From sequence record PZ452612.1: a DNA stretch of 64,000 nt; one strand, written 5' to 3'. The translations under genes were made by a program, and so were the position numbers. The stretch comes from a phage. This document shows, one piece after another, positions 1,155-39,590 of this stretch (within the stretch, counting starts at the first letter, position 1; the number at the start of each line of letters is the position of its first letter). The notes below the pieces were generated by a model. The model was not told the DNA's origin. It saw only the letters and a program-made list of their open reading frames with translations, and ran no database searches.

Positions 1155-1541
1155 TTATAGATTCGGTTTATATGATTTAAATGTTTCGAATTCGCCTTTA
1201 TTCATAAGAGCTTTGAATTCGTCAGGACGCATAGCTTTGTCGTCGATAATCCAATCATATACTGGTTTATGTGTTAGCAAATTATGGTACTTCAAACCAA
1301 TGTTTTCCAAGTTCTGAATCAGACTTGGGAGAATGTCAATTGCTATACGACCAGGACCTACTGACTTCATACCGCGAGCAGTGTAAAGCGTTATGGTATG
1401 CCCTGCATCATACAGGGCATTAATAGCAGTCACCATTTCGACGTCTGGTTTGAAGTTCACGTAATCACGATTGTTATTCCACTCTGTTATACAATCATCG
1501 ACATCAAAACAAAGATTAAGCATGTTTTCTACACGGTGCAT
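1155..1541 (-). CDS. HAD-superfamily phosphatase-like protein
   Basis: DxD motif FDVDDCIT near the N-terminus and a later IIDDKA motif fit HAD motifs I and IV. Start placed at the internal Met whose ATG overlaps the upstream stop (TAATG coupling); the track ORF extends to 1556. Confidence 0.5.
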   Translation of the reverse strand: MHRVENMLNLCFDVDDCITEWNNNRDYVNFKPDVEMVTAINALYDAGHTITLYTARGMKSVGPGRIAIDILPSLIQNLENIGLKYHNLLTHKPVYDWIIDDKAMRPDEFKALMNKGEFETFKSYKPNL

Positions 1542-3226
1542 TAGATTCGTTCCCATTGATGAGTGATATCGCCACCGATTGGACGATAAGAAACACCAGT
1601 TTCTTTATCAGTTAGTACCCATTTACCAGGATTTTTTGTAATCAGAGTAGCCGTTACAGGTTCTGCTACGTCATAACTAATAGAGCCGTCCTGAAGTACA
1701 CGGCCCATGTTACGTAATTGCTTAGTCAGAAGTTCCATACCTTTATAATATGCGGCTACCGCTTTAAGTGGATTATTCTTGAAATAACCACCTAATGCAA
1801 TCCAGATAATTGCTACAGCCAAATGATGATACTCGTTAAACGAACTCATCTTTCCATATTTGTAAACTAATGGATTGATGTTAATAGTCACATTACAAGT
1901 TGTTTCGTCAATAGTAAACTGTCCCCAGGTCGGATTAGCGTTGAATTCATCATAACCTGAAACAGCATAAAGCACTTTAGCTTCATCATACAATTTTGGC
2001 CCGTAAATCTTGGTTTCGCCAAAATATCCACGAGGGTCGATAAACTTGACTTCGCCGTTATCAGTAATCATAGTATTACTGAAGTTCGGGTCACCGTGAA
2101 TAACAGAGTACTGTCCCTGAGAACGGGTATGATAACGAATAAGATGTTCTAAAGCTTGCTTCAGCATTGGCTTCAGACGTCCAATCTTAGTGTAGTTCAC
2201 GTGTGTGATTTTACCAAATGAATCAATCAATGGCTGAATGCTTTCACAACGATCAATAACTTTCGTATAGAACTCTTTAGTGAAATCACGGCGAACAGTT
2301 TCAGGACTTACAAAATAAGTGTCTGTGCTGAATTTCAGTGCATCTAAAATTGCATCAACAATTTGTGGACGAGCAAGACTTGATTTGGATTTAATATATT
2401 CAAATGCTGGCTTACCTTTAATACGTTCCATTTCAAAATTATTTTCATTTACCGAAACTAACTGAGGAACTGAATCTGATTTCACTTTCAAATACCATGA
2501 AATCTCATCTTTTTGAAGAGCTCGACCTTGTTCGGTTAACGCGAATTTAGTTACAGTTTCTTCGCCAATTTCAACTGCATTAAAACTACGATTAAGTTCA
2601 CGAACTTCATGAGCTTTTTCAAGTTTAGGCATATCACCTAAATCAATTAGATTCATAAGCTCTGATTTATTGAATGCACTGCCGTAAAGGAATTCTACGA
2701 AATCACGTCCTTTGCAGTATTCATGAATTTCCTCATCAGTAGAACCCATGTAGAATTCCCAGTCTTTGAACTGATAAATTCCTACAACATTACCGCCTGT
2801 TGAACCTACGTTAGTGATATTTTCACCATCGAAATTATATCGACATTCATCACCCTTAACATAGATTGCGTTAACATTCCAAGACCATGAACCAAAATCA
2901 GGAATAATATCACACCAGTTAACAATTACGTTATGGCCATCTAAATCTTTGTATAATTTAGCAAGAGCATAAGCAGAACCATACGCTTCATCAACTGTAC
3001 GAATAGTCACATTGAACCCTTCTTGCTCGCAATAAGCTCGAACAGTTTCAGCAAATTTTGAATGAACTACTACAATAATTTCATCTGCGCCAAGGTCAGA
3101 ATAAATTGTATACAAATTGCTCAGAATAGTGTCTTGTTTATAGTTAACAAGAACTTTTGGAATATGATGCGTTATTGGATACAAACGAGTTGCCAGTCCA
3201 GCACCAAGAATAACAGCTTTTTTCAT
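1541..3226 (-). CDS. Bifunctional sugar-1-phosphate nucleotidyltransferase (N-terminal) / sugar kinase (C-terminal, APH/choline-kinase-like)
   Basis: N-terminus MKKAVILGAGLATRLYP matches the GxGxR loop of NTP-transferases. C-terminal half has IHGDPNFSNTMITDNGEVKFIDPRGYFG, an HGD...N...ID catalytic loop typical of phosphotransferase-fold kinases. 561 aa. Confidence 0.6.
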   Translation of the reverse strand: MKKAVILGAGLATRLYPITHHIPKVLVNYKQDTILSNLYTIYSDLGADEIIVVVHSKFAETVRAYCEQEGFNVTIRTVDEAYGSAYALAKLYKDLDGHNVIVNWCDIIPDFGSWSWNVNAIYVKGDECRYNFDGENITNVGSTGGNVVGIYQFKDWEFYMGSTDEEIHEYCKGRDFVEFLYGSAFNKSELMNLIDLGDMPKLEKAHEVRELNRSFNAVEIGEETVTKFALTEQGRALQKDEISWYLKVKSDSVPQLVSVNENNFEMERIKGKPAFEYIKSKSSLARPQIVDAILDALKFSTDTYFVSPETVRRDFTKEFYTKVIDRCESIQPLIDSFGKITHVNYTKIGRLKPMLKQALEHLIRYHTRSQGQYSVIHGDPNFSNTMITDNGEVKFIDPRGYFGETKIYGPKLYDEAKVLYAVSGYDEFNANPTWGQFTIDETTCNVTININPLVYKYGKMSSFNEYHHLAVAIIWIALGGYFKNNPLKAVAAYYKGMELLTKQLRNMGRVLQDGSISYDVAEPVTATLITKNPGKWVLTDKETGVSYRPIGGDITHQWERI

Positions 3227-3267
3227 GTTGTGGTCCTCATTGGTAAGTAGGTGTATTGTACACTATT

Positions 3268-3411
3268 CTAGTTAAAGCATTCATACTTTGCTTGTAGTCC
3301 AATCATAATCCATCCAATTACAAGTGTTGGAATCATTACTGGAGCCGTTAAGCTCCAGTAGATAGTCATGACAAGCATCAATAGTAAAAGTCCTATTGTT
3401 ATTGCTTTCAT
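3268..3411 (-). CDS. Small hydrophobic protein (47 aa), translationally coupled to the upstream isomerase gene
   Basis: Manual translation MKAITIGLLLLMLVMTIYWSLTAPVMIPTLVIGWIMIGLQAKYECFN; its ATG overlaps the stop of 3408..4043 (ATGA). Sits where T4 has imm/imm.1, but no sequence match is claimed. Confidence 0.3.
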   Translation of the reverse strand: MKAITIGLLLLMLVMTIYWSLTAPVMIPTLVIGWIMIGLQAKYECFN

Positions 3412-4043
3412 TGTTCGCCTCGTAACATGGCACCTAGTGCACCGCCTGGATGGAACTTAAGAAAGTCATTAGAGGTAAATCCACGTTCAGACGAAAGGTT
3501 GATAGCAAACGTATCGATAAGCGCTAACAACAATGTAGTGGACATAGTCGGAGCCAGAGAATTCTCATCAACCTCTACCGCGATGCCTGTACAGAAAGAG
3601 TAATCAAAAAGGGCTTCATTTTCTTGCGGAATGTCTGGGTTACAATGCAACAGAATCTGTTTGACATTTGGACGAATCATTTTAAGATGCTTAGCCACGC
3701 CTATCATTTCTTCAGTCTTACCAGAACGACTAATATGAATCAACACATCATTAGGCGCAATGAATCCTGCATCACCGTGAGAATAATGCCCAGTGTTCAA
3801 GTACATACTCGGGATACCGAGTGAAGCAAATGTCTCAGAAGCTTTAGTTGCAATATTAGCATTCTTACCAACACCTGTAATAATTACTCGGCTTTCATAA
3901 TTACTAAGTCCAGGGCGTCGAAGAGTTTCTAGAATAGCATTATAACGAGCAGGGTTTTGACTAATTACTTTGGCCATAGCGGCCAAAGAAGAAGCTTGTT
4001 TTATGATTGCGTCAATAGCGATAGTAATAGGAGTAGTTTTCAT
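3408..4043 (-). CDS. SIS-domain sugar-phosphate isomerase (arabinose-5-phosphate isomerase / phosphoheptose isomerase-like)
   Basis: 211 aa with VIITGVGKNANIATKASETFASLGIP, a SIS phosphosugar-binding signature. Lies directly downstream of gene 43. Confidence 0.6.
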   Translation of the reverse strand: MKTTPITIAIDAIIKQASSLAAMAKVISQNPARYNAILETLRRPGLSNYESRVIITGVGKNANIATKASETFASLGIPSMYLNTGHYSHGDAGFIAPNDVLIHISRSGKTEEMIGVAKHLKMIRPNVKQILLHCNPDIPQENEALFDYSFCTGIAVEVDENSLAPTMSTTLLLALIDTFAINLSSERGFTSNDFLKFHPGGALGAMLRGEQ

Positions 4044-22469: not shown

Positions 22470-22729
22470 TTAAAATATTCTCGTAGTTGGTCAAAGCCAC
22501 CGATCGAAGTTCCATCAGGAGCAAACACTTGAGGCATAGTCAATCCAACTTGTGATTCACGTCCAAGCTTAACCAGAAGCTCAGCAATTTTCTCATCATC
22601 AAAAACACCTTTTTCTGGCATAACGTTAATGAATTCGAATGGTTGTTTCTTAACAGTCAGCAATCGTTTCGCATTATCACAATAAATGCATTTATGAATA
22701 GTAGAGTCATACCCGTACACTTTAAACAT
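22466..22729 (-). CDS. nrdC: Thioredoxin/glutaredoxin NrdC
   Basis: MFKVYGYDSTIHKCIYCDNAKRLLTVKKQPFEFINVMPEKGVFDDEKIAELL... matches T4 NrdC as recalled; CIYC redox motif. Confidence 0.85.
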   Translation of the reverse strand: MFKVYGYDSTIHKCIYCDNAKRLLTVKKQPFEFINVMPEKGVFDDEKIAELLVKLGRESQVGLTMPQVFAPDGTSIGGFDQLREYFK

Positions 22730-23135
22730 TATTTTTCCTTTCATCGATTAAATATGCAACGCCAAATACAATACATGTAATAAAACCTGTGATACAGATA
22801 GAAACCAACAACACTGTACCAAAGAACCAAATCAGGTTATCTTTAGTAGTTTGTTTTATATCCATCTCACGAATTTCTATAGCTATAGTATCACCTTTAT
22901 TCAGAAGCGTATAAAACGACGGTGATACATGCCTGTCAAAAACTCGTCCTTGCTCATCTTTATAGACTGCAATAAATTCTAATTTAGAATATTTTCCTGT
23001 AGATTGACCTGAGATTAATTCCACTACCTCCACAGGAATTACTTTAGTTTCCATGTAAGTATTCTGACTGTTCCAAATGAATGGAATAATAGCAAAAACT
23101 AAAGCTGCGATAAAACAACGAAGGCTATATCTCAT
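22722..23135 (-). CDS. Membrane protein
   Basis: 137 aa with N- and C-terminal hydrophobic segments. Confidence 0.45.
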   Translation of the reverse strand: MRYSLRCFIAALVFAIIPFIWNSQNTYMETKVIPVEVVELISGQSTGKYSKLEFIAVYKDEQGRVFDRHVSPSFYTLLNKGDTIAIEIREMDIKQTTKDNLIWFFGTVLLVSICITGFITCIVFGVAYLIDERKNNV

Positions 23136-31768: not shown

Positions 31769-32071
31769 TTAGATAGATGTAGGCTCTAATTTTATTTTCA
31801 TGAACTCGGCAAATTGTCTGGCAGTTTTTATGCCTTGTTCATGACATTCAAATGCATCATCACAGGGACTATTTTTGTAATGCTTTGCCATATACTTATA
31901 GAATTTTTCAGAATTCTCGACATTTTGAATTTCAAACAAAGTATATACGTTTTTAATCCCTGATTCCATAAAGTTATCAAAATATGGGTCGATATATGCA
32001 GTACCAACGATAGGAGTTGTTGCTGCAAAAAACCCCAGCATCGCCATGACAGCTATCGCTCTTAAGGCCAT
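31769..32071 (-). CDS. rI: Lysis inhibition regulator rI (periplasmic antiholin-type)
   Basis: MALRAIAVMAMLGFFAA...DPYFDNFMESGIKNVYTLFE...YKNSPCDDAFEC... resembles T4 rI as recalled; 100 aa with signal anchor. Confidence 0.7.
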   Translation of the reverse strand: MALRAIAVMAMLGFFAATTPIVGTAYIDPYFDNFMESGIKNVYTLFEIQNVENSEKFYKYMAKHYKNSPCDDAFECHEQGIKTARQFAEFMKIKLEPTSI

Positions 32072-32083
32072 ATAGGCCTCCTG

Positions 32084-32296
32084 TTAATTTTGGCCAGTAT
32101 TTATTTTTCGCCTTTGGACGGCCTTAACATCTGTGAGGTATTTTTCCAGCTTGCGCTTGCGTGTATAATCAGCTTTAGAACCAGTTTGACGGATATCCTC
32201 GTTTAAATGAGAAATAGAATGTCCTAATTCTCTTCGGATTTCATCCAATTGGGTTACAGTAAGATTACGAAGTTGTCTTTCGTTTAATTGCTGCAT
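32084..32296 (-). CDS. Hypothetical protein
   Basis: 70 aa ORF. Confidence 0.4.
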
Positions 32297-32323
32297 ATAT
32301 ACCTCTTGGTTAGATATTAGTAT

Positions 32324-32905
32324 TTATAACAACCCTGTCAAATCATTCCAATGCTTCCGGCATAATGACACGTATCTATCGGTATCACCAATTTCAATTT
32401 GACTGCCATCTGTAATTGGAAGTCCGTCTTCCGTGACTCTAGCTACCATTGTGGCCTTTTTACCGCAATGACAGACACCTTTAAGTTCAACAAGCTTATC
32501 GGCAATAGCCATTAATGCTTGAGAACCTTCAAATAGATTACCTTTAAAATCTGTTCGTAGTCCATATGCCATTACTGGCACATTGTATACGTCAACAATA
32601 CGACTAAGTTGATACACCTTTTCAGTAGTTAAGAACTGAGCTTCGTCAACAAATACACAGTGAATATCCTTTTGTGCTGCAGCCCATTTATAGAATTCAA
32701 AGATATCCATGTCTTTTGTAATTATATTGGCATCCTGACGAATACCAATACGAGAGACTATTTCACCTTTTGAATCACGAGTATCAATAGCCGGTTTAAG
32801 AACTAATACACCCATGCCACGTTCTTTATAGTTATGTGCGGCAGTAAGTAATGAAGAAGACTTACCAGCGTTCATAGCGGCATATGTAAAAATTAAACTA
32901 GCCAT
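32324..32905 (-). CDS. tk: Thymidine kinase
   Basis: MASLIFTYAAMNAGKSSSLL (P-loop) and a C-terminal CHCG...C zinc motif; 193 aa. Confidence 0.9.
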   Translation of the reverse strand: MASLIFTYAAMNAGKSSSLLTAAHNYKERGMGVLVLKPAIDTRDSKGEIVSRIGIRQDANIITKDMDIFEFYKWAAAQKDIHCVFVDEAQFLTTEKVYQLSRIVDVYNVPVMAYGLRTDFKGNLFEGSQALMAIADKLVELKGVCHCGKKATMVARVTEDGLPITDGSQIEIGDTDRYVSLCRKHWNDLTGLL

Positions 32906-32914
32906 AAGAGTCCC

Positions 32915-33097
32915 TTATAGTGAATTCACGTAGTCAATGAGTTCTTGTTCTTTCCTGTCAAATGATTCCAACAATGCTTGATATTCTTCATCTGTTAAAG
33001 GAGCATATTCATCGTACGCATTGGTGGCTGCTTGCTCATCCAATAGGTCATGGATAAGTTCGAATAGTTTAGCTTTCTCTTCTTTAGTTAATTTCAT
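32915..33097 (-). CDS. Hypothetical small acidic protein
   Basis: 60 aa ORF. Confidence 0.35.
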   Translation of the reverse strand: MKLTKEEKAKLFELIHDLLDEQAATNAYDEYAPLTDEEYQALLESFDRKEQELIDYVNSL

Positions 33098-33321
33098 TTA
33101 GGTTCACCTTCTTTAACGAAATCTGGGTAAGGGTAAAATCCTGAGTAAAACCCTTCACCTTTATGATTGCTACAACCTTTGTTCGAACAGTAACACCAAT
33201 AATCAAAATCACAAGCCATTTCGTCATTGCATAAAGCAAAAACTACAGGCCATTCGCATTTTTCGCATTTAGCACCTGTAAGAATTTTTGTTTGACTCAT
33301 AACCATGTCACCTTTAAGCAA
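33094..33321 (-). CDS. Small Cys-rich protein
   Basis: 75 aa with CEKCEW...C...C...CYC...C pattern, suggesting metal binding. Confidence 0.4.
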   Translation of the reverse strand: MLKGDMVMSQTKILTGAKCEKCEWPVVFALCNDEMACDFDYWCYCSNKGCSNHKGEGFYSGFYPYPDFVKEGEPK

Positions 33322-33524
33322 TATTCTTCTACATGTTGTTTACGGCCTTTCTTATCAATAAAGGTATATTCAACGAATGTTCCGATGTAGTCTTTATCTA
33401 CATCATGTGGACTATTAATTGGACATTTGGTACGACAAATGCGTTCCCATTGACGAATAATTACTGCCTTATTCTTTGGGTCATATGGATGTGGATAATG
33501 TATATTCATAATAACGGTTCCCAA
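33297..33524 (-). CDS. Hypothetical small protein
   Basis: 75 aa ORF. Confidence 0.35.
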   Translation of the reverse strand: MGTVIMNIHYPHPYDPKNKAVIIRQWERICRTKCPINSPHDVDKDYIGTFVEYTFIDKKGRKQHVEEYCLKVTWL

Positions 33525-34003
33525 TCAACAATCACAATTTCTAGTTTAGTGGAATACGTATCTAAAATCTCTTCGATGACATCCCAGTTTCCGCCACCGA
33601 TACCTGCACCAATTCTTGGCATATAAATTACAGGCTTTGTTATCTTATTCTTTCCGAATTCATTTAATTCTATTATACAATTCATTAAAGCAGAGTACTC
33701 AAAATTAGGTCCCGGCTCAAACTGCGTATAAAGATTAAAGCAATAAGCTTTATGGGTCTTAAAATATTTTTCATAAACCGAATAAGTCCCGAGTTTAGAC
33801 TCGTCTCCGAATTCGGTTTGAAGTTTATCGGCTTCCAGAATTTTTGGATAAGCCTTTGCTAATTGTCCTGCCACACCGGCGCCCATTGTATGAAAACAAT
33901 TACACCCATGAGCAATATTATTACCTTTAGAAAACAGGGCGACAATATCGCCCTTGATATAGTTTTTAATCACTTGCTGCAAGTCCTCTAGTATAAGAGT
34001 CAA
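33506..34003 (-). CDS. Macro-domain protein (ADP-ribose binding/processing fold)
   Basis: NIAHGCNCFHTMGAGVAGQLAKAYP and MPRIGAGIGGGNW resemble the two glycine-rich loops of macro domains; 165 aa. Confidence 0.55.
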   Translation of the reverse strand: MTLILEDLQQVIKNYIKGDIVALFSKGNNIAHGCNCFHTMGAGVAGQLAKAYPKILEADKLQTEFGDESKLGTYSVYEKYFKTHKAYCFNLYTQFEPGPNFEYSALMNCIIELNEFGKNKITKPVIYMPRIGAGIGGGNWDVIEEILDTYSTKLEIVIVDWEPLL

Positions 34004-34313
34004 CTAGACGGTCCACCATAGAATTGCATGCTGCCTTATCTTTAGGTTCCGCCACCGAGCATTCTAATATTTGCCATTTTTTATAGTATCTTTTAATTAA
34101 GGTAGACGCCTTGAACCTACTAGACGCCCCATCTTTTTCTCCGTCTTTATACGCGTATAACAATTTTTGTGAAAAATCTACTTTACACTCTTGACTTTTA
34201 CCACAATAATCAGACGCCGTTCTGTTTGTATACTCCGTTACATCAGTATATGTAGTATTAGCAAGAGCGTTAAATGAAACCAAGCTAACTATTAAAGCCA
34301 ACATTTTGGTCAT
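33966..34313 (-). CDS. Secreted protein (signal peptide, four Cys)
   Basis: MTKMLALIVSLVSFNALA signal-like N-terminus; 115 aa. Confidence 0.45.
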   Translation of the reverse strand: MTKMLALIVSLVSFNALANTTYTDVTEYTNRTASDYCGKSQECKVDFSQKLLYAYKDGEKDGASSRFKASTLIKRYYKKWQILECSVAEPKDKAACNSMVDRLVDSYTRGLAASD

Positions 34314-34852
34314 TCTTTTATTTCCAGTAGTTTATTTGATTTAAGGTAATTAGCCTTTTCTAGGACTTCAGAAGCATATTTACTTCCAGCACTTGTCTTC
34401 CATCCCGCATTATATGAGGATATGGCTTTTCTTATATCCCCGTTATGTATATTTAACCAATAAGAAAATTCGATATAAGCCCATCTGGCTGAATTAGACC
34501 GCTTAGATAGCATTTTCTTAATTTGGGCATCAGTCATATTATAACCAAGCTGGTTAATTCTTGCCCTCATTGTTGGTAGATAGTTTTGGAACATTCCATA
34601 CGCATGGTGACCTTTCTTATCTTTAAGATTAATACCGGCAGATGATTCTTGCCATAGTATTGCGGCCATTATGTATCCAAGTCCTTTCTTATGCATATTT
34701 TCATGCGTTTTAAATTTTCCATCCTTAGAAAACTGTTCCCCAAACTGATAAGCATAATTCAAGTTATCGAGTTGGACATTACTAAAAGTATGCTCGGAGC
34801 TATGTGCTGATAACGAAAGAGCAAATAGACCAGCGAGTAGTGCTTTTCTCAT
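34310..34852 (-). CDS. Secreted lytic transglycosylase-like protein (SLT domain)
   Basis: Signal peptide MRKALLAGLFALSLSAHS, then ILWQESSAG...YGMFQ, which resembles the SLT catalytic Glu-Ser and GLMQ motifs; 180 aa. Confidence 0.55.
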   Translation of the reverse strand: MRKALLAGLFALSLSAHSSEHTFSNVQLDNLNYAYQFGEQFSKDGKFKTHENMHKKGLGYIMAAILWQESSAGINLKDKKGHHAYGMFQNYLPTMRARINQLGYNMTDAQIKKMLSKRSNSARWAYIEFSYWLNIHNGDIRKAISSYNAGWKTSAGSKYASEVLEKANYLKSNKLLEIKE

Positions 34853-34860
34853 GTTTACCT

Positions 34861-35319
34861 CTAGATTTTAATCACTGCTTTAGAAGCTTTTCCTGGTAGT
34901 CGTTTACTGTTAATAATAGCCATTCTGCATTGAAGAGTCTTCATTTTGAATGCTGGATTTTCGCGACAAACTGTAAGTCCTAACCAAAGATTTCCATCAG
35001 TTATTTCTAAACGGCCTGGGCGATATTCGACACCTTCGACAAAATCTTCATCAACATCTGGACGGGCTGGCATTGATAAAAATTCTGCAACTTCTTTAAC
35101 ATGATTTTTTACTTTATGAAATAATTCAAAAACGTAATTCTCATCTATTTCTCTCTGGATGGCACGATCTAAGAGATGTTGAGAATACTTGATATGAAAG
35201 CCTGGTAGTCCAAGAGACTTTGCAGCATCTTTTATACTGGCATTTATTTTGCGGAACTCCGTTTCAAAGATTCGACGGAGTTTATTGCGGCGGATAAAAA
35301 CGTCTGAATTGATAGTCAT
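34861..35319 (-). CDS. regB: Endoribonuclease RegB
   Basis: MTINSDVFIRRNKLRR...YSQHLLDRAIQREIDENYVFELFHK...QCRMAIINSKRLPGKASKAVIKI matches T4 RegB as recalled; 152 aa. Confidence 0.85.
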   Translation of the reverse strand: MTINSDVFIRRNKLRRIFETEFRKINASIKDAAKSLGLPGFHIKYSQHLLDRAIQREIDENYVFELFHKVKNHVKEVAEFLSMPARPDVDEDFVEGVEYRPGRLEITDGNLWLGLTVCRENPAFKMKTLQCRMAIINSKRLPGKASKAVIKI

Positions 35320-35346
35320 TTTGATTTCTCCTCTAGTTGACAGGTC

Positions 35347-35376
35347 TATAGTAACACAACTAGAGGAGAAGTAAAC
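35347..35376 (-). promoter_or_regulatory. Early-type promoter (GTTTAC -35, TACTAT-like -10) upstream of regB
   Basis: Minus strand reads GTTTACTTCTCCTCTAGTTGTGTTACTATAGACC. Confidence 0.4.
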
Positions 35377-35717
35377 TACTCTTTGAAAGGAATTAACTTT
35401 TTAACTGCTTTAGATACTTCGTCACGAACCTGGTGGAAGTTCTTGAGCTGTTCAAGGCGTTGTTCGTAATACGCAATCTCATCTTCTTCAAGACAATCGT
35501 CAGCGTCTTCTTTCAGATATGCCTTGTACTCATTAAAGAGGGCCCATAGGCGGTTCTCAAAGTCATCAAGGCTTTGAATTTTCTTGTGCTTCGGAACAAG
35601 GCCAAAAGGATTGCTTTCAGTTATGCGTCGAGATGCTTCATAATGAGTTCCAAAGCCTGATAGGATTTGAGCCATTAGTATTTTTCCTCTGGTTGAAATA
35701 CCGCACGACAAGCCCAC
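35376..35717 (-). CDS. Hypothetical protein
   Basis: 113 aa ORF. Confidence 0.4.
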
Positions 35718-35920
35718 ATACTAGCTTCCTTTAGGCGTTCTTTAGCACAGTTCAATTGGGACAAAGCTGTCAAAGCTTCAGGAGTATTCGCAGACAACGC
35801 TTCTTCCGCCAAGGCATCGAAAATAAGCCCTAATCGAACTTCTGCATCTTTAATAGCGTTCACTTTACCGATTTTATCATCGGTATGCGGCTTGTAGCCT
35901 TTGATGTCTTCAATCGACAT
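35675..35920 (-). CDS. Hypothetical protein
   Basis: Track ORF 35675..36088 trimmed to the internal Met [18 protein letters not shown]... Confidence 0.35.
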
Positions 35921-36134
35921 AAGGAATTTCCTCATCGGTGGCAAGGTCATATTCGACCAATTGGATAGGCTCATTAATACCATATCCACGTACAGTGATA
36001 TCGGTTGTCGGATATTTTCCAGTAATATCACCCATTCTAAATGCTTCAGTGAATGATTGCTCGCCTGAGCAACTAAACCAGGCGGCAAAACATTTTAAAA
36101 CATCTTCAGACCCTTCTATAATCAATTTAGCCAT
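35910..36134 (-). CDS. Hypothetical acidic protein
   Basis: 74 aa ORF. Confidence 0.4.
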   Translation of the reverse strand: MAKLIIEGSEDVLKCFAAWFSCSGEQSFTEAFRMGDITGKYPTTDITVRGYGINEPIQLVEYDLATDEEIPYVD

Positions 36135-36496
36135 TATAGACTCTCAGTAAAGGTACGAGCGATAACGTCGCGCTGCTGTTCCGGGGTCAGAGAGTTAAAG
36201 CGAACTGCATAACCGGATACACGGATGGTCAGCTGTGGATATTTTTCCGGATGCTTAACTGCATCTTCCAGAGTTTCGCGACGCAGAACGTTAACGTTCA
36301 GATGTTGACCACCTTCAATTTTAACTTTAGGTTGATGTTCAATTTCAATTTCACGGGCATTCAAACCGTAGAAAATTTCCGGGTCTACAATAGCGTCTTC
36401 TTTAAAAGTCTTAGAGACGATAATCCGGGCTTGAGTACCGTCTTCAAAATAAATAGTGCCTTTATGTGCACCTTCAAGAATTTGATATGCTTTCAT
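36134..36496 (-). CDS. grcA: Autonomous glycyl radical cofactor GrcA/YfiD-like
   Basis: C-terminal ...[62 protein letters not shown] carries the RVSGY glycyl-radical motif and appears near-identical to enterobacterial GrcA as recalled. Confidence 0.85.
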
Positions 36497-36502
36497 ATAA
36501 CC

Positions 36503-36811
36503 TCAATTAGAAAATAAATTTATCCAAGTTTTTTCTTTAATCAAAAATGGGTCAGAACTAAACGCCATTAAACTTTGAGTGATTAATCCCTTAAATGGCC
36601 CATCAATAAATTCCATTTTGAAATGCGGAATACTAGTCATCAACCGTGCGTTAGGAGCAGTACAAAGAACCTGCTGCCCTGCGAACGGACCTTTAGTCAA
36701 ACGGTATCGTTTAGGTTTAAAATGGTAAATCTCGTAATTTTCTACAAGAGCCCTTTTATTGCATACTGGGCTGTTATAACAATATTCAAAAACTTCAATA
36801 GTGGTCATCAT
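36503..36811 (-). CDS. Hypothetical protein
   Basis: 102 aa ORF. Confidence 0.4.
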   Translation of the reverse strand: MMTTIEVFEYCYNSPVCNKRALVENYEIYHFKPKRYRLTKGPFAGQQVLCTAPNARLMTSIPHFKMEFIDGPFKGLITQSLMAFSSDPFLIKEKTWINLFSN

Positions 36812-37347
36812 TGCATTCCAATCACAAAAAATTGAGGACGAGCATTACCGCCGATGCAATATTTGCTTTTGCAGCAGTACTGTACTGTTTTAATATGGAC
36901 ATTGTAAATCTTATCCATATCAGGAGCTTTAATAGGCTCGTCAATTATATACAGAATACGAGAAAGCGTTAATCCACGGAATTTAGAACCTTCATTGCCA
37001 ATAAAACTACGAACAGAATCAGTAAATAAACGGAATCGAATATCATCGCTAGAATAACGAGAAAATTCTTTTTCAATGTTACCAGCAGAAATTTTAGCAT
37101 AAGCTGAAGTATTAGAAAGAACAATAACTGTTCCGCCATCATACAGCCAATTAGCAGCAAAGTTAGTCACAGCAATTGATTTACCGGATTGTCTGCCACC
37201 GTCTAAACGAAGTGTACAGTACTGCTTGAGTACGTCTTCAAACGGTGGGATATAACCGTTCTTACAAATTTCTTCTACTCTAGCATCAGAATGGTGTGTA
37301 AAAGCATTCATCAGGGATAGATAAGGTCCAGTTAAAAATGTTCTCAT
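36808..37347 (-). CDS. Hypothetical protein with a P-loop-like motif
   Basis: DGGRQSGKS in a 179 aa ORF. Confidence 0.4.
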   Translation of the reverse strand: MRTFLTGPYLSLMNAFTHHSDARVEEICKNGYIPPFEDVLKQYCTLRLDGGRQSGKSIAVTNFAANWLYDGGTVIVLSNTSAYAKISAGNIEKEFSRYSSDDIRFRLFTDSVRSFIGNEGSKFRGLTLSRILYIIDEPIKAPDMDKIYNVHIKTVQYCCKSKYCIGGNARPQFFVIGMQ

Positions 37348-39131: not shown

Positions 39132-39590
39132 TTATAGGATGGTAGTGAGCACCTTATATAATGATTTACCCATTACATATTCCCATTGAGAAGGTTTAAT
39201 TAAAGCGAATGCATCAAATTCAGGAATCTGTCGTCCGTCTGGGAATGTATGATAGGAATTACAAACACTGTTTCTGAATTGCTCGTGCTCTACAGGGATG
39301 GTATATAGGAACAGATGAATATTCTTATTGTCTGAGTAATGATGTTCACCTAGGTCTTTCAGGAAGGCAGGGTCATATTGTGTAAACCCAGTTTCTTCTT
39401 CGCATTCACGAATAGCGGCTTCAATAGGAGATTCGCCAGGTTCGACACGGCCTTTAGGAATATCCCACCGATGAGTTAATGCACCTTTAGGACGAGAACC
39501 AGTTACACGCCCCATGAATAACTCTTTATCTTCGGTAAGGAAAATAATACCGGCTGATAGCTCTTTCACTTTATTTTTCTTACTCATCAT
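39132..39590 (-). CDS. nudE: Nudix hydrolase NudE
   Basis: Nudix box GRVEPGESPIEAAIRECEEETG; 152 aa. Confidence 0.8.
   Translation of the reverse strand: MMSKKNKVKELSAGIIFLTEDKELFMGRVTGSRPKGALTHRWDIPKGRVEPGESPIEAAIRECEEETGFTQYDPAFLKDLGEHHYSDNKNIHLFLYTIPVEHEQFRNSVCNSYHTFPDGRQIPEFDAFALIKPSQWEYVMGKSLYKVLTTIL

Follow-up and report, generated by a model that had tools for sequence, protein, structure and literature searches.

A macrodomain protein of an RB69-like phage, orthologous to T4 Tk.4 (AdfM), with glutamine at the catalytic lysine position

Gene organization and start codon at the tk.4 locus

The macrodomain gene lies on the minus strand of the window (the whole 64,000-nucleotide stretch of phage DNA that was analysed), in a leftward block between the DNA polymerase and the baseplate genes (Table 1), a position that makes the 'early region' of the first-pass annotation a reasonable description. 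Positions 32000-36000 of the window are 100% identical by megablast to Escherichia coli O157 typing phages 3, 6, and 13, and by this identity the source phage is a Mosigvirus (RB69-like, Straboviridae). The gene order is vs–tk.4–tk.3–tk.2–tk.1–tk, with regB and vs.1 on the other side, as it is in T4 (regB–vs.1–vs–tk.4–tk.3–tk.2–tk.1–tk), and tk.4 stands between vs and tk.3 in JS98 too.

Table 1. Positions of the tk.4 gene, its sequence features, and genes elsewhere in the window, with phiKZ gp104 for comparison
Feature	Coordinates	Strand	Basis or remark
Macrodomain ORF as first listed	33506..34003	minus	TTG start, 165 aa
tk.4/adfM ortholog, single-domain macrodomain, 155 aa	33506..33973	minus	GTG start, TGA stop
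10 codons most likely untranslated in the macrodomain protein	33974..34003	minus	inside the 3' end of vs
Translation start region	33971..33990	minus	GAGGA Shine-Dalgarno-like motif ~10 nt 5' of GTG
Hairpin within tk.4, GGGCGAU-AUU-GUCGCCC, then U-rich run	33936-33954	minus	terminator scan
First ADP-ribose-pocket loop, codons 22-32, H-G-C-N-C-F-H-T-M-G-A	33878..33910	minus	profile alignments
Codons 80-84, N-L-Y-T-Q, with invariant Q84	33722..33736	minus	HMM alignments, high posterior probabilities
Glycine-rich diphosphate-binding loop 2, codons 119-130, P-R-I-G-A-G-I-G-G-G-N-W	33584..33619	minus	
tk.4 stop/tk.3 start overlap (ATGA)	33506..33509	minus	sequence and annotated CDS coordinates
vs (valyl-tRNA synthetase modifier)	33966-34313	minus	
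vs.1	34310-34852	minus	T4 synteny
regB	34861-35319	minus	T4 synteny
Four ORFs, each named 'endoribonuclease RegB'	34310-37347	minus	GenBank KP869104
Cys-rich small ORF	33094-33300	minus	tk.2 counterpart by position
Phosphoheptose isomerase, GlmU-like bifunctional protein, KpsF arabinose-5-phosphate isomerase	1155-4043	minus	annotation
Nudix hydrolase gene, annotated rppH	39132-39590	minus	annotation
phiKZ gp104	22518-23006		phiKZ sequence

The ORF was first listed from a TTG codon. It is a real minus-strand gene, but its 5' end was set too far upstream, and the start is most likely the GTG at 33973; the CDSs of GenBank (AKE45872.1) and RefSeq (YP_009593122.1) have these same shorter coordinates and 155 codons, with the product names 'macro domain protein' and 'phosphatase', respectively. 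We place the start at the GTG because the T4 ATG aligns exactly with it in an alignment of the vs/tk.4 junction and has an in-frame stop codon directly before it, and because 'MI' is the N terminus in 87 of the 120 nearest homologs, matching the window protein when read from the GTG. The window frame upstream of the GTG is open for just 10 codons, back to the TTG at 34003, which was rejected as a start: it falls within the upstream vs gene, 30 nt 5' of the GTG. The GAGGA motif upstream of the start is conserved between the window and T4 in the junction alignment. Two antisense ORFs, 33333-33626(+) and 33863-33991(+), are without support.

The tk.4 GTG overlaps the vs stop codon, the overlap of the two genes being 8 nt, and the ATGA shared by the tk.4 stop and the tk.3 start suggests translational coupling within the vs–tk.4–tk.3–tk.2–tk.1–tk block. 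We read the two overlaps as the tight packing usual in a T4 early/middle block whose genes are co-translated. A sigma-70 promoter scan from 31.5 to 38 kb returned 23 sites, with 21 ± 4.7 in shuffled sequence; as there is no excess over shuffled sequence, the scan says nothing on the timing of tk.4 expression. A GC-rich 8-bp hairpin followed by a U-rich run was picked up 18 nt inside tk.4. Its nucleotides are identical in T4, and it is kept in JS98 and lost in a Karamvirus that has Lys in place of Ala. Compensatory changes are absent, so we rejected this terminator-like hairpin as a real element; it probably arises only because of the codons for G-D-I-V-A.

Several other genes in the window deserve comment. 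The genes for sugar enzymes that adjoin the DNA polymerase presumably form an RB69-type arabinosyl-hydroxymethylcytosine DNA-modification cluster, and we take the Nudix gene annotated rppH to correspond to T4 e.1/NudE. Speculatively, the Nudix product might consume ADP-ribose freed by the macrodomain enzyme. The Cys-rich small ORF, second downstream from tk.4, encodes CEKCEW…CNDEMAC…CYCSNKGCSNH, a pattern suggestive of a zinc-binding module. The product of vs.1 begins with a segment resembling a signal peptide and carries a motif like that of lytic transglycosylases (…WQESSAG…SSYNAGW). KP869104 gives the RegB name to four separate ORFs; by synteny with T4 only one of these is regB. The vs gene of T4 is reported as the most depleted gene in minimal medium versus LB in a preprint on HIDEN-SEQ (bioRxiv 10.1101/2025.11.20.689424).

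The predicted macro fold and its ADP-ribose pocket

Profile searches and structure modeling agree in making the window protein a macrodomain, with an assignment far beyond chance. The protein matches Pfam PF01661 Macro over profile positions 2-117 of 118 with 28.1 bits (gathering cut-off, 22; E 2.2e-6) and PHROG 335 'phosphatase' at E 7e-67. Searched as a single sequence with phmmer against PDB sequences, it matches BT1257 best (6e-11), and also Poa1p, SCO6735, TARG1, and DarG, the last near noise level at ~20-22 bits; a family profile built from 56 homologs matches PDB macrodomains with E values from 6e-17 through 9e-12. By tblastn, relatives occur in 2,801 phage records.

An AlphaFold2 model made from the 56-homolog alignment (mean pLDDT, 95.8; pTM, 0.91) has the three-layer alpha/beta/alpha arrangement with a central mixed sheet, so the structure prediction on which the first-pass annotation had staked its macro-domain assignment returned a macro fold; the assignment is upheld by the Pfam match above cut-off, the PDB profile matches, and the AlphaFold2 model with Foldseek. 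TARG1 is the top Foldseek match in the PDB (E 4e-10), Poa1p matches with a TM score of 0.80, and BT1257, the DarG proteins of Thermus (Taq) and Mycobacterium (Mtb), and SCO6735 also match, with TM scores of 0.7-0.8 among the top matches; viral and archaeal MacroD-type domains rank lower. There are 130 PDB matches at E<=0.001, and the best 50 of the 130 are macrodomains or designs on that scaffold. Among solved folds, human TARG1/OARD1 and yeast Poa1p come closest to the model, and the window protein groups with the ALC1-like/Poa1p-like macrodomains.

The two glycine-rich motifs quoted at the outset, HTMGAGVAGQLA and RIGAGIGGGNW, both occur in the ORF translation, and the loops M30-G31-A32-G33 and G122-A-G124-I-G-G-G128 are invariant or nearly so in the Tk.4 family. 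Conservation was counted over the 120 homologs nearest to the window protein, a set that extends to about 39% identity. Q84, N80, and Y82 are each present in all 120, N25 and the Gly at position 23 in 118, and H22 in 117; T29, the equivalent of Poa1p Ser30, is Thr in 73 of the 120 and Ser in another 6. In the AlphaFold2 model, Q84 is at the C-terminal end of the strand formed by residues 75-84 (DSSP).

Residue equivalences with characterized macrodomains were taken from HMM alignments of the 56-sequence family profile, which are mutually consistent and match the published structure-based equivalence. Two other alignments were not used: one of seven distant macrodomains made with plain MAFFT, in which the catalytic region is one residue out of register, and an hhalign comparison with the single phiKZ gp104 sequence, in which this region is gapped. 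The SCO6735 sequence was recovered by a PDB search seeded with BT1257, and its numbering reproduces the His24, Val25, Asn27, and Gln85 of PMC9411070. In the profile alignments, Q84 falls opposite K80 of DarG ('NFPTK', in both Taq and Mtb), K84 of TARG1 ('YLITK'), K78 of phiKZ gp104/AdfM ('FpTK'), and Gln85 of SCO6735 ('NMIGQ', shared with BT1257). N25 corresponds to N22 of DarG, N27 of SCO6735, and N23 of phiKZ AdfM, and H22 corresponds to H24 of SCO6735 and H23 of Poa1p. The position of TARG1 Asp125 is Gly126 in the window protein, and Gly or Ala in its homologs. As judged from these alignments, an invariant Gln84 replaces the catalytic Lys of DarG, TARG1, and phiKZ AdfM, and this is the point that is new in the present work.

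Relationship to characterized macrodomains

The glutamine has precedents in SCO6735 of Streptomyces coelicolor (PDB 5E3B) and Bacteroides BT1257 (2FG1/2AFC), both of them Gln-type ALC1-like macrodomains, and Gln85, Asn27, and His24 of SCO6735 together with its PRIGxGxxGG loop match Q84, N25, H22, and the corresponding loop of the window protein. On DNA, SCO6735 removes ADP-ribose from thymidine by hydrolysis, and it can rescue cells from DarT. Its activity is lost in the Q85A mutant, and structural superposition puts Gln85 where TARG1 and DarG have their catalytic lysines (PMC9411070). The likeness has its limits, however. SCO6735 and BT1257 are only about 22-28% identical to Tk.4, and although the window protein has the Gln and the orienting Asn of the SCO6735 type, it lacks both the extended loop and a Val/Ile at position 25. 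SCO6735 has a mobile loop that is 5-6 residues longer and carries Lys89 and Lys94, absent in Tk.4, and Val25 where Tk.4 has Gly23; the spacing from Q84 to Y93 is 8 residues in 102/120 nearest homologs and 14 in SCO6735. Tk.4 in turn has signatures of its own, H-G-C-N-C and N-x-Y-T-Q. The mechanism of SCO6735 rests on molecular-dynamics simulation and mutagenesis, with Lys89 and Lys94 serving DNA binding and the Val25 position said to hold the catalytic water (PMC9411070). Because Tk.4 is without the mobile-loop lysines and has Gly for Val25, we do not transfer that mechanism to it wholesale.

Of the two closest solved folds, TARG1 has a Lys84/Asp125 dyad where the window protein has Gln84 and Gly126. 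Poa1p has the H-x-C-N-C motif in common with Tk.4 but Ser at the Q84 position, and the profile match to it extends over the N-terminal half only (positions 3-81). The residues of Poa1p probed in PDB 6LFS/6LFT are His23 and Ser30.

DarG (PDB 5M31/5M3E/5M3I) has the same macro fold as the window model, with TM scores of about 0.75-0.78, and the conserved Asn, and its target, the DarT2 modification, is common to Tk.4 according to the T4 genetics (see below). It differs, however, in having the catalytic Lys80 where the window protein has Gln84. The NCBIfam DarG equivalog model NF048014 gives 31.9 bits for the window protein, with a cut-off of 250 and a match to positions 4-146 of 338, and the PADLOC DarG model gives 33.2 bits, for the macro part only. 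The C-terminal DarT-binding domain of DarG is absent from the 155-aa protein, and no darT gene lies beside tk.4, whose neighbors are vs, vs.1, regB, tk.3, tk.2, tk.1, and tk. Membership in the DarG family was rejected because the score is far below cut-off and the C-terminal domain, the catalytic Lys, and a neighboring darT gene are all missing; the window protein probably works like DarG but belongs outside that family.

A different relationship is seen for phiKZ gp104, also called AdfM, a macrodomain-only phage protein that removes T-ADPr from oligonucleotides and counters DarTG2 (PMC13309987). The phiKZ protein scores 90.7 bits with Mtb DarG, and its matches are confined to DarG proteins, with none to TARG1 or BT1257; against the Tk.4 profile it scores 31.5 bits at about 20% identity. 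The phiKZ AdfM, with K78, is thus clearly DarG-derived, whereas the T4-type AdfM, with its invariant Gln84, is of another macrodomain subfamily, and on these sequence comparisons the name AdfM looks to span two separate macrodomain recruitments.

Probable action against DarTG2

The window gene is, by full-length identity of 85% and the same gene position, the ortholog of T4 tk.4 (adfM). The two proteins are identical at 131 of 155 residues, with no gaps over the full length (E 7e-105), and all of the family-invariant residues of T4 Tk.4 are also in the window protein; the 24 substitutions include one in loop 2, where T4 has K127 and the window protein G127. The T4 gene starts with ATG, and that of the present Mosigvirus with GTG. 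The T4 record bears the note 'contains A1pp phosphatase motif' for tk.4.

DarTG2 is a bacterial system in which ADP-ribose is attached to DNA, so that phage replication is blocked. That T4 should have an anti-DarTG2 factor apart from the NADAR factor AdfN was to be expected, since T2 and T4 without AdfN stay resistant (PMC11825919). In a preprint of November 2025, a T4 transposon library is screened by HIDEN-SEQ on a DarTG2-expressing host; tk.4 is the single significant hit in T4 under DarTG2, a clean tk.4 knockout makes T4 sensitive to DarTG2, and the gene is renamed adfM, for 'anti-DarT factor Macrodomain' (bioRxiv 10.1101/2025.11.20.689424). The authors propose, from structural likeness to Mtb DarG, that ADP-ribose is removed from DNA enzymatically; the support presented there for the tk.4 role is genetic, was obtained in T4, and has the standing of a preprint (bioRxiv 10.1101/2025.11.20.689424). 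The gene is therefore already known: it is annotated as a macro domain protein, and genetics has linked its T4 ortholog to defence against DarTG2. The first-pass annotation had proposed counter-defence by reversal of an ADP-ribose-based host defence, and this agrees with the genetics of the syntenic, 85% identical T4 ortholog. The kind of role was correctly chosen; the target (the ADP-ribosylation of thymidine in DNA by DarT2), the existing annotation, and the characterization in T4 went unnamed.

We consider it likely that the Mosigvirus tk.4 ortholog encodes a free-standing 155-aa macrodomain ADP-ribosyl-glycohydrolase, which removes DarT2-attached ADP-ribose from thymidines in single-stranded phage DNA and probably does so independently of a lysine. 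The glycohydrolase would be made during infection, the host toxin DarT2 of DarTG2 would attach ADP-ribose to thymidines in single-stranded phage DNA, and the tk.4 product would strip these thymidine-linked groups, such that phage replication continues. In the active site, Gln84 may position the distal ribose with help from Asn25, as proposed for SCO6735, and a backbone-held water would do the chemistry in place of a TARG1-type nucleophilic lysine. A lysine-independent, SCO6735-like route is probable for Tk.4-type proteins because Gln84 is invariant at the catalytic Lys position. We infer that the window allele does the same as T4 tk.4, that the mechanism is the enzymatic removal of thymidine-linked ADP-ribose, and that the catalytic detail is as outlined here.

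Macrodomains are promiscuous, and DNA need not be the sole substrate. An unlikely alternative is that the protein acts on small molecules rather than DNA, as a Poa1p-type ADP-ribose-1''-phosphate phosphatase or O-acetyl-ADP-ribose deacetylase that clears NAD-derived metabolites or degrades ADP-ribose-based immune signals. This is the basis of the legacy annotation (the PHROG 335 'phosphatase' and the T4 'A1pp phosphatase motif'), and Poa1p is indeed among the best matches in both sequence and structure, with the H-x-C-N-C motif in common and H22 equivalent to its H23. To our knowledge, however, T4-type RNA repair generates no Appr>p, and the match of the family profile to Poa1p is restricted to the N-terminal half of the profile; moreover, the equivalent of Poa1p Ser30 is poorly conserved, while Q84, where Poa1p has Ser, is invariant. 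The phenotype of the T4 knockout, in the available text of the preprint, is specific to DarTG2, a DNA-modifying system. A broader role in which the enzyme mainly reverses or tunes protein or RNA ADP-ribosylation, by Alt/ModA/ModB or by host ART defences, with protection from DarTG2 as a side activity, seems more doubtful still, although protein or RNA de-ADP-ribosylation may exist as an additional activity. TARG1, the top structural match, and SCO6735 both use protein substrates besides DNA (PMC9411070), and T4-like phages encode ARTs of their own (PMC9503650). Nonetheless, the tk.4 hit in HIDEN-SEQ is reported only under DarTG2 in the available preprint text (bioRxiv 10.1101/2025.11.20.689424), and the RNA-ADP-ribosylating CmdTAC system restricts T-even phages despite their tk.4, according to the accessible part of that study (PMC11618068). 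A further point against such a role lies in the substrates themselves: the Alt/Mod enzymes modify arginine, and we know of no macrodomain that acts on this linkage.

Equally improbable, in our judgment, is that Tk.4 is an antitoxin mimic, which would neutralise DarT2 chiefly through inhibitory binding, with no need of catalysis. In vitro, DarT is still inhibited by the catalytically dead proteins SCO6735 Q85A, DarG K80A, and TARG1 K84A, with the strongest effect from SCO6735 (PMC9411070), and two other phage anti-DarT factors, AdfA and AdfB, seem to act on DarT itself and block its activity (PMC11825919). However, the domain with which DarG binds DarT is missing from the phage protein, and the conservation of Q84, N25, N80, Y82, and both Gly loops, even in homologs of only about 39% identity, speaks for catalysis being under selection. 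We thus favor enzymatic removal of ADP-ribose from phage DNA over each of these alternatives.

This case illustrates that a reading of sequence alone can pick out a genuine counter-defence gene, although it adds no new biology in doing so; the sole addition made here is that Gln stands in for Lys, with what this may mean for the mechanism and for where the family came from. With Gln84 in place of Lys, Tk.4 should not be called a 'DarG-like orphan antitoxin', and the collision of names, in which two proteins of different subfamilies and with different catalytic residues are both called AdfM, is worth flagging. More tentatively, and as a suggestion to which we give somewhat less than even weight, the T4-type AdfM may be no captured DarG but a branch of the ALC1-like macrodomains that has Gln84 instead of the lysine and was recruited independently, such that phage erasers of the DarT2 mark would have evolved at least twice, with Lys in phiKZ and with Gln in T4; the Gln type would perhaps have wider substrates, including protein, RNA, and small-molecule adducts, and may counter more than DarTG2.
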